Shown here in pieces: positions 10,164-33,056 of a DNA stretch of 45,927 nt. Origin of the DNA: Minisyncoccota bacterium (GTDB taxonomy: Bacteria > Patescibacteriota > Minisyncoccia > Minisyncoccales > CG1-02-41-26). A program made the translations under genes and the position numbers. The notes beneath the pieces were generated by a model that did no database searches, was not told the origin of the DNA, and saw only the letters and a list, made by a program, of their open reading frames with translations. Each line of letters starts with the position of its first letter. The first letter of the stretch is position 1. The stretch lies in the NCBI GenBank assembly GCA_028718965.1, contig JAQUKS010000003.1:1-45927 (forward strand), read 5' to 3'.

Positions 10164-10181
10164 CCGTGAATTTTGTACAGG

Positions 10182-10216
10182 AAACCGGGCTCGTTAAAGC
10201 CTGGTTTTTTGTTTAT
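10182..10216 (+). terminator. intrinsic terminator after tRNA-Gln
   Basis: A 9-bp stem, aaaccgggc (10182-10190) pairing with gcctggttt (10199-10207) with one G-U and an 8-nt loop, running into ttttttgtttattttt. Confidence 0.6.
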
Positions 10217-10248
10217 TTTTGGCTTAAAGTTATCCACAGTTTTTTAAT

Positions 10249-10276
10249 TTGACAGGCCATTTATGTAAGCTAAAAT
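10249..10276 (+). promoter_or_regulatory. candidate promoter of the giant gene
   Basis: TTGACA (10249-10254), a 16-nt spacer, then TAAAAT (10271-10276), about 37 nt upstream of ATG 10313 in an AT-rich spacer. Confidence 0.35.
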
Positions 10277-10312
10277 TATATAAATATATTCCATATCCAA
10301 TATCGGATTGTA

Positions 10313-13300
10313 ATGACAGAGCAAGAAATCAAAGTCAATAATTACATATCTCTGGCCGAGGCCGCCGCGATATATACTGAGCACTCTCAGGAGTATTTGA
10401 GTTTGCGGGCAAGGCAAGGAAAACTTAAAGCAATAAAAATCGGCCGAAACTGGCTCACTAAGAAAGAATGGGTCGAGAAATACGTCAGTCAGGTGAGTGA
10501 TAAAAATGGAAACAATGGTTCTATACGCGTATCCGATACTTTTCAAGAAGAGAAGCCGGTCTATCTGTCTTTGGCAGAAGCTGAAATTTATAGTGGGTAT
10601 TCGCAGGAATATTTGGGGTTGCGAGCGAGACAGGGGAAATTGCGCGCGGTAAAAATCGGCCGAAACTGGCTCACTAAGAAAGAATGGGTCGACGATTACA
10701 AGATTAAGTTAGGCATAAGTGAACGACGTTTACCTGTTGAACCCGGACTGACAAAAATTACCGCAATAGGGAGAATAGGGAGATTGCCGCAACCGGGAAA
10801 ACTTTTCCATCCGATAAAAGAAGCATTTCAAAATTTTATTTTTATCATTAAGGCGAAAAAACCAGCCATGATTCTCGGTGCGTTTCTGATTTTTTGTTCC
10901 GCGGGACTGGCTGCTGGCTACCCTTATGCTGAAAATTTCATGCGGAGTCTTTCTGGACATTCCGAAACCCAGCTTGGCAGCATTGTTTTAAGAGCGACTG
11001 AATTTGCCGGCTTGCTTGAAAATTCTGTTTCGAAAGATTATCAAAAAGCCTATTGGACTGCGGAAAAATTTTCTGAAAAATTTTATAGAATTAAAAATTC
11101 GTTCGCTTGGGCCGTTTCTCGTTCTTTAATCAATTTAGAGAAGTCAGTCCGGCAAAATAGAGATAATCTGACGAATATCGTCACGGCATCGGAGATATTG
11201 GAGGATTATCTGGAAAAGTCCATGGCTGTTTCCTGTTCTTCCACCTGGCAGGATTTCAGAAATAAAAACAATCTGGCTCAAGGATTTATCAATCGTTTTA
11301 CTGCCGATGAATACCAGCGCCGAAAACAAAAAGCCGATGATTTCGCCGAGCAGCTGGCGGCAGGCTGGGGAGATGTCGAATCATCTTTGAGCGACATCGG
11401 CCTGGAATTGAAACGCGTCGCGGAAGATTATTCGTCGCTGGCCGCTGATAATTTGCGTTACGGCAATTATTTTTTACAGAGCTATTTGGCAGGGGAGTGG
11501 GAAAGATTTCAACAGCAGAGCTATGAATTATTTGCGCTGTCTCGGGGCGCGAAGCATACGGTAGAAAAATTTTTCGCCGCCGGCCAAGAGAAAACTTTTG
11601 AATATCGAAATTCGATTTCCTCACGCACGTTTGGACGTCTGGAGTTCATTGAAAACGAATTTTTTGCCGATGTGACTGCTTCACGGCAGAGCTTTTATGA
11701 CTTTGCCGCTAAAGCTTTTGAAACCGGACTTCAACAAAAACAAAAAGCCGATGATTTCGCCGAGCAGCTGGCGGCAGGCTGGGGAGACGCGAAGTTATTT
11801 TTAAGTTATGCCAGTCTGAAGTTAAAACGCGTCGCGGAAGATTATTCGTCACTGGCCGCTGATAATTTGCGCTATAATTCGCAGGCTGTTTCTTATCACG
11901 TTAACCAATGGGGAGATGTCATAGCGGATCGGCTGGAAGATCTCAGCGGTGATTTGATTATAGGCGTCACGGAAAGAGTGAGTTCTTTCATCGCCCAGGC
12001 CAGCCTCAAAACCGAAGATGCCGCTTATGCCATCGCTTACGTAACGGGCTATCTGGCTTCATCGGGAGCTGATAATTTTCAACAGACAACCCAGTCATTA
12101 TGGGGAAAGATAATATCCAGCGCGGATGCGGTTGATAATAAAATCGTCGAGGGCGTACAGAATACAATGGACAGGTTAAGATTCCTTACATATATATCAG
12201 ATAAAGTCGGCGAAGATATAAAAAACGGTTATGAATTCGTGATGAATCCCTGGTGGAAAGGAGAGACCCGGCCGATTGCCGAAAAGCCGTCGCGAACCAT
12301 TAATATAGAGCCGTTCGATCCGTTTCCGGACGATGATGAGGAAGAGGCCGTTGAGGAAGAACAAGTTTTACCCGCTTCCGCGGAACAATCAATCGTTCAA
12401 GTTTCGCCTGTTAAAGGGACATCCGAATCCGCGCCTCGGGAAACGCTGATTCAGCCGACTAAAGAAATCACCCGTGAGATTTTGCGCATTGATGACGCCT
12501 CGCTGGCACTATTGAAAGGACAGGTAACGGAATTGCAGAAAAATTACGCAAGCATTGTGGGCTTGCAGGATTTGGCCGCCAAGATACAATCGGTCCCACC
12601 GGTTTATTCAGTGGCGGCTGCTTCACCGGTTTATGTCGGCTCGACCGGTATTCAAGTCGGCGGGGGAGCCAATTTAAATACTTTGGGAGTGAGCGGCTCG
12701 GTGGGCATCAGAAATTTGTCGGTCGGGGGTTCGGCTGAAATCGGCGAGACTTCAAGCGATGTTTTGACAGTAAACGCTTTTGCTGATTTTCTTTCCGATG
12801 TCATAGTGCGCAAAGATCTTGAGATCGCGGGCGACTTGACGATAGGGGGCAGCCAAAGCGGAGGAGGAGTTGTTTCGTTTTCAGCTTCAAGCTCTTCGCC
12901 GATTTTGACTTTGAATCAGACGGGTTCGGGGCAGATAGCGCAGTTCAAGGACGCGGGCAATGTTGTTTTTGAGATTGCAAAAGGCGGAGCTATAACGATA
13001 ACCTCCACTTCTTCTCCGCAGTTAAGGGTTGCTTACGATGGCTCAAATTATCTCATTCTTGAGGTTTCCTCCACCGGAGATGTTTCAGCGACCTCCACCG
13101 GAGCCTTGAGTCTTACCGCTAACGCCGCTTCCGTATGGCAAGTTGTTTCCGCCCCGCTCACCATAAAAACAGATACGAGCGGCGATATTATTCTGTCTTC
13201 AGCGGGCAATCTTACTCAAAAATTCGCGACAAGCTCGGCTTATGGCTTGTATCAGGGAGAAATCGCCCGCTTGGCCATTAATACCGCAGGAGATGTTTCT

Positions 13301-32248: not shown

Positions 32249-32252
32249 AACG

Positions 32253-32275
32253 CTGTCGGTATCTGGTACCGACAG
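32253..32275 (+). repeat. REP-A hairpin copy 2 (ctgtcggta-tctgg-taccgacag)
   Basis: A perfect 9-bp stem with a 5-nt loop, 7 nt upstream of the RAYT-like gene start. Confidence 0.9.
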
Positions 32276-32282
32276 ACAAAAT

Positions 32283-33029
32283 ATGCGTGTAGAACCATTT
32301 ACAGTGGGCGATTATGTTCATGTATATAATCGCGGCAACAGAAAACAAGATATAGTTCATGATGAAAAAGACAAGTGGCGTTTTATGCAGGCATTGAGGT
32401 TTTTTAATGACGTTCATTCTTCACAGAATATTCTAAGGGACATTTTGAAGTTGTCGGTATCTGGTATCGACAGACAGATTTCGGTGCCGGACTCGGTATT
32501 CCAGACGGGTTGGCCGAATAATTGGCCCGAAAGAGAGCCGCTTGTGCAAATCATTTGTTATTTTCTCGGGCAGAATCAATATCATCTTCTCTTAAAAGAA
32601 ATAAAGGAGAATGGAATCAGCAAATTTATGCAAAAATTAGGCATTGGTTATACAAATTATTCAAACACGAGGCACAAAGAGGTGGGTAGAATTTTCCAGG
32701 GGCCTTATAAATCAAAAACGGTAAGTGAACAATTTTATTTGGAATATCTCACTGTTTATATTCAGGTAAAAAATGTTTTTGAATTATTCCCCGGCGGTTT
32801 TGACGCGGCGATAAGAAATCTTGATGAGGCGTTTGCGTTCGCAGAGCGTTATCCGTTTTCAAGTTATCCTGATTTTGCTGGTTTGCGTCATTCTTTAATT
32901 ATTGATAGAACCAATGAAGAGCTGGGAGAGAATATTTTGAACTCTCAACATTATAAAAAGTTTGCTCGTGAAGTAATGGAGGCAAGAGAGTATGAAGCGT
33001 TGTTGGAAGGTTTAAAAATTGACGAGTAG
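32283..33029 (+). CDS. IS200/IS605 TnpA-like (Y1 HUH) REP-associated tyrosine transposase-like protein 1
   Basis: The family pattern is present: YVHVYNRGNRKQDIVHDEKDKWRFMQAL, ..NQYHLLLKE.., MQKLGIGYTNYSNTRHKEVGRIFQGPYKSK, YLEYLTVYIQVKN (candidate catalytic Tyr). The HUH position reads Q-Y-H, versus H-F-H in the paralog at 44358. It is flanked by inverted REP-A hairpins. Confidence 0.75.
   Translation: MRVEPFTVGDYVHVYNRGNRKQDIVHDEKDKWRFMQALRFFNDVHSSQNILRDILKLSVSGIDRQISVPDSVFQTGWPNNWPEREPLVQIICYFLGQNQYHLLLKEIKENGISKFMQKLGIGYTNYSNTRHKEVGRIFQGPYKSKTVSEQFYLEYLTVYIQVKNVFELFPGGFDAAIRNLDEAFAFAERYPFSSYPDFAGLRHSLIIDRTNEELGENILNSQHYKKFAREVMEAREYEALLEGLKIDE
32451..32473 (+). repeat. REP-A hairpin copy 3, inside the RAYT-like CDS
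   Basis: ttgtcggtatctggtatcgacag, identical to copy 1. It encodes ..KLSVSGIDRQ.. Confidence 0.85.
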
Positions 33030-33033
33030 CTGT

Positions 33034-33056
33034 CTGTCGGTACCAGATACCGACAG
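33034..33056 (-). repeat. REP-A hairpin copy 4, inverted orientation (loop ccaga)
   Basis: ctgtcggta-ccaga-taccgacag, the exact reverse complement of copy 2. It begins 5 nt after the RAYT-like stop codon. Confidence 0.9.

Follow-up and report, generated by a model that had tools for sequence, protein, structure and literature searches.

Organization of the Locus

The contig JAQUKS010000003.1 from a Minisyncoccota bacterium carries a block of four genes that encode a giant fibre protein and three proteins built from arrays of LamG domains, located between a tRNA-Gln gene and the cell division gene ftsZ. The block is analysed here within the whole stretch of 45,927 nucleotides (nt), hereafter called the 46-kb window, whose gene-sized open reading frames (ORFs) were scanned with Pfam and NCBIfam; PHROG profiles were also used. 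The host is assigned to Candidatus Gribaldobacteria within the Candidate Phyla Radiation (CPR, Patescibacteria), and cultured members of its group live attached to other cells. Its FtsZ is 69-70% identical to that of two Gribaldobacteria metagenome-assembled genomes (MAGs; loci L001 and L002) and 50-57% identical to that of other Parcubacteria-group MAGs, while its FtsE is 83-84% identical to that of three metagenome contigs (L068-L070). The block and its borders contain the following features:

10091-10165, + strand: tRNA-Gln(CUG) (ARAGORN; Rfam, 66 bits), a conserved feature that bounds the variable slot on the left
10177-10212, + strand: terminator-like hairpin with a T-run, 3' of tRNA-Gln
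10249-10276, + strand: promoter-like site TTGACA-16-TAAAAT, after the terminator-like hairpin
10313-21820, + strand: giant fibre gene, an intact ORF of 3,835 amino acids (aa)
21824-21846, + strand: copy of a hairpin of the repetitive extragenic palindrome (REP) type in the 36-nt spacer between giant and LamG495 genes (z-score -3.9)
21857-23344, + strand: LamG495 gene (495 aa; N-terminal signal-anchor helix and two LamG-fold domains)
23348-23377, + strand: strong hairpin in the spacer between the LamG495 and LamG1408 genes (-12.9 kcal/mol; z-score -5.3)
23389-27615, + strand: LamG1408 gene (1,408 aa; signal-anchor helix and six LamG domains)
27951-32234, + strand: LamG1427 gene (1,427 aa; signal-anchor helix and six LamG domains)
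32252-33057, + strand: gene resembling REP-associated tyrosine transposases (RAYT; 248 aa, ORF 32283-33029) with its hairpins

The four ORFs are present with the lengths and the spacers (36, 44, and 335 nt) reported in an initial annotation of this DNA, as is the left border, with the tRNA recognized by ARAGORN and Rfam and the hairpin at 10177-10212 behind it. That the block encodes nothing but four proteins does not hold, because a minus-strand tRNA gene also lies in the 335-nt gap. All four genes lie on the plus strand, as had been noted, but so does every gene-sized ORF with a database match across the window; therefore, co-directionality is not a property of the block. The hairpin at 23348-23377 may be a terminator or an attenuator.

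None of the four proteins matches a Pfam enzyme family at the curated cut-off, in agreement with the earlier remark that they lack recognizable enzymatic motifs. Pfam likewise revealed no S-layer (SLH) or cell-wall-binding domains in them, and an LPXTG motif with a transmembrane (TM) helix is absent from their C-termini. In the block genes and the flanking gene-sized ORFs, Pfam and NCBIfam identified no usher or chaperone, no beta-barrel translocator, no ABC transporter, membrane fusion or outer membrane protein (ABC/MFP/OMP), and no sortase signal. The proposal that the gene products are non-enzymatic surface binding modules is supported by the domain and fold evidence described below.

The Giant Fibre Protein

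The 3,835-aa protein can be divided into the following regions:

10340-10708, + strand: two tandem excisionase/MerR-type winged helix-turn-helix (wHTH) modules (aa ~10-60 and ~84-132) with a predicted cytoplasmic location
10859-10927, + strand: single TM helix (aa ~183-205) preceded by KAKK, from a hydropathy scan and an AlphaFold2 (AF2) model
10928-12680, + strand: juxtamembrane ectodomain and "neck" (aa ~206-790; ~580 aa)
12680-20287, + strand: fibre shaft (aa ~790-3325)
20333-20578, + strand: possible distal beta-sandwich (aa 3341-3422; weak Phage_depo_C match, Pfam E 0.0012, below the cut-off, low AF2 confidence)
20600-20992, + strand: conserved ~130-aa domain, pre-neck-appendage-like (Peptidase_G2-type; aa ~3430-3560)
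21473-21817, + strand: C-terminal conserved module EKRTGITIYDEDTGQPYCLKMKAGAM and acidic tail of ~80 aa

Pfam returned nothing at E <= 0.01 for the protein as a whole. In the neck, a 138-nt internal duplication (11323-11460 and 11737-11874, 86% identity) was found, as well as a motif, KEITREI..IDDASLALLKGQ, common to the homologous proteins P0003, P0033, and P0071. The shaft is composed to 48-63% of G, S, T, N, and A and contains 15 GNVGIGTxxP motifs and, at aa ~1543-1660, a run of 17-residue repeats. It is matched by the PHROG tail-fibre families phrog_9942 (E 9e-21) and phrog_18345 (E 3e-14), and one of its segments, aa 2779-3016 (nt 18647-19360), matches the crystal construct of Bdellovibrio Bd2133 (PDB 8OND, E 8.5e-8) and a second protein of the same kind (8OJN, E 2e-4). 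A PDB search with the region of the 17-residue repeats (aa 1480-1800) gave no match.

Bd2133 is a mosaic adhesive trimer (MAT) protein; together with Bd1334, Bd2439, and Bd3182, it was used for comparison (PMC10769870). MAT proteins are trimeric, surface-displayed fibres that are akin to phage tail fibres and mosaic in construction; their shafts are beta-helical, their tips can be exchanged, their ends are of the S74 or the non-S74 type, and one of these proteins binds bacterial glycans (PMC10769870). The giant fibre shares with them the sequence of the shaft segment, including the (G/S)GN(V/L)G(I/L)GT motif that opens beta-helix segments, the mosaic of shaft and exchangeable tip, and the existence of S74 and non-S74 variants among relatives: the fibre encoded at locus L009 has an S74-type motif, SSLRYKENIEDL, which the window fibre lacks. 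Moreover, Bdellovibrio and the tiny, probably host-dependent bacterium that carries this locus both need attachment to other cells. However, the giant fibre is about four times longer (3,835 vs. ~1,000 aa), and its distal end consists of a G2-type domain, an extra conserved module, and an acidic tail. It is anchored by cytoplasmic tandem wHTH modules and a TM helix, whereas the "full-length" construct of Bd2133 comprises residues 21-1,031, which suggests that the mature MAT fibre starts at about residue 21, i.e., behind a cleaved leader. Trimer formation, a property of MAT proteins, and glycan binding, reported for one of them, are putative in the giant fibre. If its rise per residue were like that of Bd2133 (370 aa over ~145 Å), the shaft would extend over about 100 nm. 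The GC skew, which is positive over the window, drops to approximately zero or below across the shaft (13001-21000); the most plausible cause is the coding content of this region, rich in Gly, Ser, Thr, Ala, and Asn, and not a switch of replication strand.

An alignment of homologues of the distal ~130-aa domain revealed the conserved core ADxAExY...GDxV...ALAGRVPVKV...PGxAMKA. The domain was modelled by AF2 with pLDDT values of ~76-95, and Foldseek placed it on barrels of "Preneck appendage protein" entries in BFVD (E 2e-8 to 8e-8; rmsd 2.8-2.9 Å over 130 aa, 28-30% identity). One homologue, P0162, is labelled PF11962 (Peptidase_G2). In phages, G2-type pre-neck appendage domains serve as auto-chaperones for trimer folding, and that of phi29 gp12 is an autocleaving assembly chaperone. 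The ADxAExY motif of the giant resembles the G2 cleavage region, and autoprocessing of the fibre may occur. An S74 domain was not found in the window fibre by Pfam. The G2-like domain is followed by ~270 residues, at the end of which stands the module that also forms the C-terminus of the S74-type fibre of L009 (EKRTGITIYDE.TG.PYC.KMKAGAM). Close homologues of aa 3300-3770 were found in Patescibacteria only, among them P0121 (64% identity), whose cluster has a Gribaldobacteria member. A PDB match of the C-terminal profile to NodB (E ~0.6) was dismissed as chance.

These similarities raise the question of whether the block is a phage-derived module, such as a prophage remnant, a tailocin-like structure, or a phage-binding decoy. 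PHROG matches to tail-fibre and "virion structural protein" families would fit such an origin, as would the BFVD Foldseek matches, which are all to phage or giant-virus proteins (pre-neck appendage, tropism determinant, and tail proteins), and the presence of a tRNA gene inside the block. Yet Pfam, NCBIfam, and PHROG scans of the window detected no capsid, portal, terminase, sheath, baseplate, or lysis genes, and the "virion structural" matches are accounted for by the LamG fold alone. Like phage tail fibres and tailspikes (phi29 gp12 with Peptidase_G2; the endosialidase type with Peptidase_S74), the giant has PHROG matches and a C-terminal ~130-aa domain; in contrast to them, it is cellular and membrane-anchored, without virion context, and continues beyond that domain. 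All four block proteins possess cellular membrane anchors, that of the giant is common to hundreds of Patescibacteria proteins, and no relative of the fibre's distal 1,041 aa was found in scans of IMG/VR viral contigs. A phage origin is consequently regarded as highly improbable, the least probable of the readings considered here.

A Predicted Winged-Helix Membrane Anchor

The N-terminus of the giant comprises two ~50-aa repeats with the pattern YISLxEA..YSQEYLSLRARQGKLKAxKIGRNWLTKKEW. Profile matches of this region remain below threshold: TIGR01764 at aa 13-60 (NCBIfam, E 1e-5, 25.8 vs. a cut-off of 28.8 bits) and HTH_17 (tiled Pfam, E 1.5e-4, 22.4 vs. 27 bits). In an AF2 model of aa 1-230, for which 35 homologues were used, two modules of beta-alpha-alpha-beta-beta-alpha topology (pLDDT 94-97) come first, and a long helix occupies residues 184-214. 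In Foldseek searches, the tandem pair matched TraN of pIP501, and further matches were obtained with the excisionase RdfS, BldC, and RacA; the Xis protein of mycobacteriophage Pukovnik superimposes with an rmsd of 1.8 Å over 49 residues (TM-score 0.71). The designer pentatricopeptide repeat matches returned by a PDB sequence search with aa 1-205 are spurious and stem from a short linker. The start codon is supported by homologues beginning MTSQEIKENNYI (P0001) and by the match at L068.

The initial annotation had described a short basic segment followed by one hydrophobic helix at each of the four N-termini, which applies to the three LamG proteins but not to the giant, whose only hydrophobic helix, at aa ~183-205, comes after the two wHTH modules. 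Because KAKK precedes this helix, the positive-inside rule predicts an N-in/C-out topology with a cytoplasmic N-terminus.

The wHTH module was identified in more than 100 Patescibacteria proteins at 55-79% identity, most of them annotated as "partial," and the regions downstream of it comprise collagen, LamG, pectinesterase, FGE-sulfatase, Fic, and "S-layer" annotations. A phmmer search of 1.84 billion cluster representatives with the module yielded 1,870 clusters at E <= 1e-3 and 646 clusters (50% identity) at E <= 1e-10, hence at least 646 that share the anchor. Among the 150 matches listed, all but one, a multi-repeat case, have the module at the N-terminus or close to it; the proteins measure 83-6,890 aa. 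Related giants of 4,310-6,890 aa were found, and one relative of 4,310 aa combines the wHTH repeats with 35% identity over ~500 aa of the shaft.

Each module of the giant fits Xis and BldC (rmsd 1.8-2.0 Å, TM-score ~0.7) and the pair fits TraN, all of them DNA binders, so that the modules are putative DNA-binding domains; the TIGR01764 and HTH_17 scores stay below their cut-offs. RodZ follows the same plan as the giant's anchor, with a cytoplasmic HTH, one TM helix, and an outside domain. To our knowledge, no TraN-, RdfS-, Xis-, BldC-, RacA-, or RodZ-type protein bears an extracellular fibre of several thousand residues. No description of HTH_17-anchored CPR surface proteins was found in a literature search of limited coverage, which is weak evidence of absence; fibres of this kind with a tandem Xis-type wHTH and TM anchor, and the wide occurrence of that anchor in Patescibacteria, appear to be new here.

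One might go further and suppose an undescribed, Patescibacteria-wide "inside-out" class of proteins whose wHTH modules couple contact outside the cell to the chromosome or to gene expression. Its members may have one to three near-invariant Xis/MerR-type modules inside, a single TM helix, and an exchangeable ectodomain, which may be of the fibre, LamG, collagen, pectinesterase, or Fic kind. By analogy, the modules could operate as a ToxR- or Notch-like contact sensor or could tether DNA at the site of host contact, the latter in organisms reliant on the uptake of DNA and nucleotides. This coupling is a speculative proposal to which we assign a low probability.

The LamG-Array Proteins

The presence of three LamG-array genes was confirmed by Pfam: Laminin_G_3 (PF13385, cut-off 27.6 bits) scores 158.8, 440.7, and 502.5 bits in LamG495, LamG1408, and LamG1427, with 2, 6, and 6 matched stretches, respectively (E 1e-46 to 2e-152). 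The domains measure ~200-250 aa; their boundaries were taken from WK(L/M)DE...FDGxDDY...IDDVRIYN(YA) motifs in the two large proteins (6 + 6) and mainly from Pfam in LamG495. Weak matches to Sialidase N-terminal, 3-keto-disaccharide hydrolase, Pentaxin, and Toxin_R_bind_N families were judged to be cross-matches of the LamG/ConA fold and not to indicate enzymes. Similarly, an NCBIfam match to the fimbrial protein TafC covers only the LamG part of this haloarchaeal Tat-fimbria subunit, lies far below the cut-off, and was rejected as membership.

All three N-termini consist of M-x-x-(K/A)-K-Q-x-L-F-I and a hydrophobic helix of ~20 residues. The prepilin motif (G/FTLIE) is absent from the three arrays, which have no N_methyl match and neither Gly at -1 nor Glu at +5; a C-terminal anchor and an LPXTG motif were likewise not found in these proteins. 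Judged by these features, the LamG proteins most likely have a signal-anchored (type II) or Sec-cleaved ectodomain.

Pairwise identities of the LamG domains range from 20 to 52%; the arrays are old, each position being distinct, and are not freshly amplified repeats. A 234-nt internal repeat with 95% identity in the LamG1408 gene (24189-24422 and 25578-25811) points to recent exchange or conversion and is the only such sign in the arrays; the term "recombinationally active" in the initial annotation was therefore overstated.

A separate pilin-LamG gene at 40687-41529 does carry the prepilin motif. Its 5' part (40722-40946) is exactly duplicated over 225 nt at 44032-44256, just after PPDK and just before a second RAYT-like gene, where the copy creates an ORF of 86 aa (44039-44299) with a prepilin N-terminus and the tail EGLESHRDL, compared with QGLENHRNL at the C-terminus of the full pilin-LamG protein. 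The ORF has the appearance of a pilin derivative without LamG; alternatively, the sequence near the RAYT gene may have been rearranged recently.

A Variable Slot Between tRNA-Gln and ftsZ

For comparison with related genomes, all window proteins were placed on the relatives' loci by tblastn. The slot extends from tRNA-Gln, which follows ftsEX, to the gene of a Wzy_C protein with tetratricopeptide repeats (Wzy_C-TPR) and ftsZ. FtsX and tRNA-Gln occur in the same order in L004, L008, L068, L069, and L070, and in every relative, with a filled or an empty slot, Wzy_C-TPR is directly 5' of ftsZ. The contents found were:

L001: LamG1427-like gene, then RAYT
L002: three small unknown ORFs, one gene with six LamG domains (44% identity to LamG1427), then RAYT
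L004: one 258-aa protein with wHTH module, TM helix, and short ectodomain
L005: LamG1427-like gene (39% identity), then RAYT
L006: one gene with three and one with five LamG domains, then a RAYT fragment
L008: empty, with 74 nt from the end of tRNA-Gln to Wzy_C-TPR
L009: fibre with the S74-type SSLRYKENIEDL motif adjoining Wzy_C-TPR, without LamG genes or RAYT
L011: LamG1427-like gene (42% identity) next to Wzy_C-TPR
L068: giant N-terminus after tRNA-Gln (68% identity over aa 1-134; FtsX 70%), then the contig end
L069: RAYT-like ORF directly 3' of tRNA-Gln

Thus, slot content differs among relatives while the flanks are syntenic. The synteny comparison suggested in the initial annotation consequently shows the interval to be variable, being empty in L008, short in L004, of the S74 type in L009, and filled with LamG arrays elsewhere, and the objection that the block might be core rather than accessory fails.

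Variability of this kind could reflect a horizontally acquired island that had integrated at tRNA-Gln and was mobilized or bounded by the RAYT/REP unit. Such an origin would account for the tRNA at the left edge, the transposase-like gene with inverted hairpins at the right, the REP hairpin copy within the block, and the presence/absence polymorphism represented by L008. Several observations contradict it. Neither Pfam nor NCBIfam nor PHROG detected an integrase or recombinase family in any block ORF, and the 3' 24-mer of tRNA-Gln occurs only once in the window even when three mismatches are allowed, i.e., without an att-type second copy. The GC content at third codon positions (GC3) lies between 0.51 and 0.57 for the four genes, compared with 0.44-0.59 for the flanks, with the two RAYT genes as the only outliers (0.35-0.37); the raised total GC of the block stems from second codon positions (GC2), since the proteins are rich in Gly, Ser, Thr, and Ala. 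Furthermore, homologous fibre or LamG genes occupy the same slot in family-level relatives with as little as 50-56% FtsZ identity, and the N-terminus of the giant is about as conserved in the closest relative as FtsX is (68 vs. 70%). An acquired mobile island, as originally proposed, is therefore considered very unlikely, and the RAYT genes described in the following section weigh in the same direction.

Adjacency of a wHTH-TM gene to ftsX, with tRNA-Gln where it was detected or sought, was observed in four lineages with products of 258-3,835 aa:

Window: 9119-10927
L004: 2519-4396
L068: 1352-3027
L149: 1940-4689

The form of L149 (554 aa) ends in the module ..SGI(I/V)(I/V)P.F.EREG.EYLY(I/M)MVPV, which is also present in the short family members P0002, P0010, and P0105, is absent from the 258-aa form of L004, and is loosely similar to the C-terminal EKRTGITIYDEDTGQPYCLKMKAGAM of the giant. 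In other bacteria, FtsEX pairs with extracellular effector proteins; by analogy, a functional tie of the wHTH-TM proteins to FtsEX is conceivable.

Such an arrangement also bears on the possibility that the block serves an envelope-structural or nutrient-capture role, as a surface layer, a glycocalyx scaffold, or a means of scavenging polysaccharides, maybe tied to ftsEX, murJ, Wzy_C, and ftsZ. Behind ftsX/tRNA-Gln, a wHTH-TM gene recurs in the window and in L004, L068, and L149, among them short forms that have no fibre; this is in agreement with such a role, as are the position of the cluster among division and envelope genes and the many glycans bound by LamG domains. However, the proteins are without SLH or cell-wall-binding domains, their extreme length, mosaicism, and lineage turnover are typical of recognition proteins subject to diversifying pressure, such as MAT proteins and phage fibres, and the content of the slot is dispensable for division in L008, since the slot is empty there. 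An envelope role is thus judged to be unlikely.

RAYT Genes and REP Hairpins

At the right edge of the block, the initial annotation had placed an HUH transposase-like gene with inverted hairpins. Gene and hairpins are present: the inverted 27-nt arms at 32252-32278 and 33031-33057 are 100% complementary, with 0 chance matches expected, and each forms a 9-bp hairpin. The HUH motif, however, is degenerate (N-Q-Y-H-L, the first His being replaced by Gln), Tyr152 and Tyr159 being conserved, and the Pfam match to Y1_Tnp stays below the cut-off (19.8 vs. 23 bits). A further REP hairpin lies inside the ORF at 32451-32473; four copies were counted in the 46 kb, one of them (21824-21846) ~10 kb from the gene.

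The second RAYT-like gene (44325-45080, unit to 45119) has an intact HFH and a Y1_Tnp score of 32.7 bits (cut-off 23). It is accompanied by a distinct hairpin of its own, TTGAAAGTGGCCGAGCCACTTTCAA, upstream, inside the ORF (44890-44915), and downstream (45093-45119); a PDB search with its product gave no match. With a ~250-aa Y1-transposase-like gene between inverted palindromic hairpins, extra copies nearby, and the HFH-bearing paralogue, the window resembles known REP/RAYT units, from which the edge copy differs in its QYH, the hairpin within the ORF, and the sub-threshold Pfam score.

RAYT-like genes with their own hairpins also adjoin Wzy_C-TPR in L001, L002, and L005. Their products are 57-59% identical to the second RAYT of the window vs. 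30-33% to the edge RAYT and, unlike the latter, have H-F-H. L001 and L005 also have an internal hairpin, ~565-610 nt away from the upstream copy, while L002 has flanking palindromes only; overall, the hairpin sequence co-varies with the RAYT lineage. Because RAYT-like genes stand at the same position in these three relatives, the RAYT gene appears to be a long-term, resident neighbour of Wzy_C-TPR in this lineage rather than the end of an island, and the loss of the first His of HUH in the edge copy is a further point against mobilization by this unit.

A Resident Locus, Probably for Attachment

Taken together, the locus is best understood as a resident, hypervariable cell-surface locus at a fixed chromosomal slot, the products of which would be Sec-exported, membrane-anchored adhesins for attachment to host cells or particles. 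We assign this reading a probability of about 60%. In the proposed mechanism, the two Xis/MerR-type modules of the giant would stay in the cytoplasm and the TM helix would anchor the protein, while ~3,600 aa would be exported, probably via Sec. The exported shaft would form ~15 tail-fibre/MAT-like beta-helical segments, followed by a distal tip and then the G2-type domain. The fibre would trimerize, extend roughly 100 nm outward, and be the first to touch a host cell or particle, and the three type-II-anchored LamG strings would bind surface glycans at shorter range. Gain, loss, and exchange of genes and domains between lineages would tune target specificity.

CPR cells imaged in groundwater appear to be without an outer membrane (PMC7906910). 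If the envelope is monoderm here as well, no usher, autotransporter barrel, or type I secretion system (T1SS) would be needed, and their lack is to be expected. Lectin-like envelope proteins have been reported to be essential for the epibiotic growth of a cultured Patescibacterium (PMC10633639). A comparable arrangement exists in the archaeon Candidatus Nanohalococcus occultus, where the genes SVXNc_0801-0813 encode strain-specific multi-LamG surface proteins with up to five domains each and a proposed role in host recognition (PMC10266531). Three of its multi-LamG proteins share an operon with two further products, a 1,693-aa trimeric-adhesin-like protein and a pyocin-knob protein (PMC10266531). 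In both cases, likened here by description, an ultrasmall episymbiont encodes LamG arrays together with a long, trimeric-adhesin-like protein, but the DPANN cluster is archaeal, its anchors are different, and its fibre partner is autotransporter-adhesin-like and pyocin-knob-like rather than MAT-like.

Surface fibres and lectin arrays of episymbionts and predators are a known kind of locus, and the framing as an "island" is ordinary and partly wrong. The earlier statement that the block matches no characterized adhesin layout is overstated in view of the homology of the fibre to Bdellovibrio MAT fibres and of the DPANN cluster; moreover, each of the four proteins has a membrane anchor of its own near the N-terminus, and in a monoderm cell the missing usher, autotransporter, or T1SS would not be surprising.

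Several points weigh against the attachment reading. The strong conservation of the cytoplasmic wHTH modules is unexplained by a purely adhesive role, and LamG domains also have non-adhesive roles. The G2-type label depends on Foldseek matches to predicted phage structures and on the precomputed Pfam label of one homologue, while Pfam detects no G2 domain in the giant itself (neither PF11962 nor PF13884). The C-terminal AF2 tile is of moderate quality (mean pLDDT 68.7), with low confidence in the part adjacent to the shaft, and its matches in the PDB are weak, the best being phage capsid decoration proteins at E 1.9e-3, and are not relied upon here. Finally, most relatives' contigs break inside the slot genes, as expected for repetitive sequence, and the full slot content is known for few of them.

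Host recognition by CPR bacteria is little known beyond a few cultured Saccharibacteria, and type IV pili have so far been the main candidates. The locus offers a site-fixed set of candidate recognition proteins with fast turnover that may be usable to predict host range from metagenomes. In view of the homology between the CPR fibre and the structurally solved MAT proteins of Bdellovibrio, unrelated host-dependent bacteria may draw on a common, phage-like set of tools for recognizing other cells. In addition, hundreds of CPR surface proteins can be recognized by the widespread and unannotated wHTH-TM anchor, which prompts the question of whether contact at the surface is linked to DNA binding.

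Transcription Units and an Antisense tRNA Gene

The 335-nt gap between the LamG1408 and LamG1427 genes was found to contain or adjoin three minus-strand features:

27751-27822, - strand: atypical 72-nt tRNA (Rfam 46.4 bits, gathering cut-off 29; ARAGORN, Leu(UAG))
27864-27837, - strand: second promoter-like site, upstream of the atypical tRNA
27957-27930, - strand: sigma-70-like promoter TTGACA-16-TATAAT (12/12 match to the consensus)

The tRNA scores 46 bits in Rfam vs. 64-66 bits for the other three tRNAs of the window. It has a class-I shape with a short variable loop, a G3:U70 acceptor pair, A73, and C37, and its anticodon stem is closed by a U·C mismatch or, alternatively, a shifted perfect stem leaves a 9-nt anticodon loop. 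Bacterial tRNA-Leu belongs to class II, and G3:U70 with A73 is the identity element of alanyl-tRNA synthetase. Based on these features, the gene could encode a mis-decoding tRNA (Ala at CUA) or could be decaying. No tRNA gene was found in L002, L005, L006, or L011, the LamG regions of which are only partly covered, and exact matches to the anticodon arm were found neither in IMG/VR nor among 149 fetched loci.

The antisense tRNA and the hairpin at 23348-23377 imply that the four genes do not form a single operon, and a minimum of two or three transcription units is predicted. Since gene sets also differ between relatives, the initial description of the block as one apparatus is not upheld.

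Flanking Genes

Both flanks carry housekeeping genes, as had been noted earlier for division, translation, and glycolysis; they include PGK, MurJ, LepA, FtsE, and FtsX on the left and FtsZ, enolase, and PPDK on the right. The left flank further comprises a DHH phosphoesterase, RNase H, RNase P RNA, DivIC, tRNA-Gly, tRNA-Thr, and a release factor; in the right flank, Wzy_C-TPR, a sugar nucleotidyltransferase, NAD(P)HX dehydratase, TrxR, and the pilin-LamG gene were identified. Wzy_C-TPR (33019-35469) is an O-antigen-ligase-like, multi-pass membrane protein with C-terminal TPR repeats. Wzy_C domains are also found in protein O-oligosaccharyltransferases, and the protein could glycosylate the neighbouring Ser/Thr-rich surface proteins.

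A bacterial class A RNase P RNA (121 bits) lies at 2601-2986 between the RNase H gene and murJ, and an overlapping ORF of 107 aa on the opposite (minus) strand is spurious. An RVT_3 match at 2122-2559 had suggested a diversity-generating retroelement, which was rejected: the match falls on a 145-aa protein that also has a weaker RNase H match and is consistent with an RNase HI-type enzyme rather than a reverse transcriptase.

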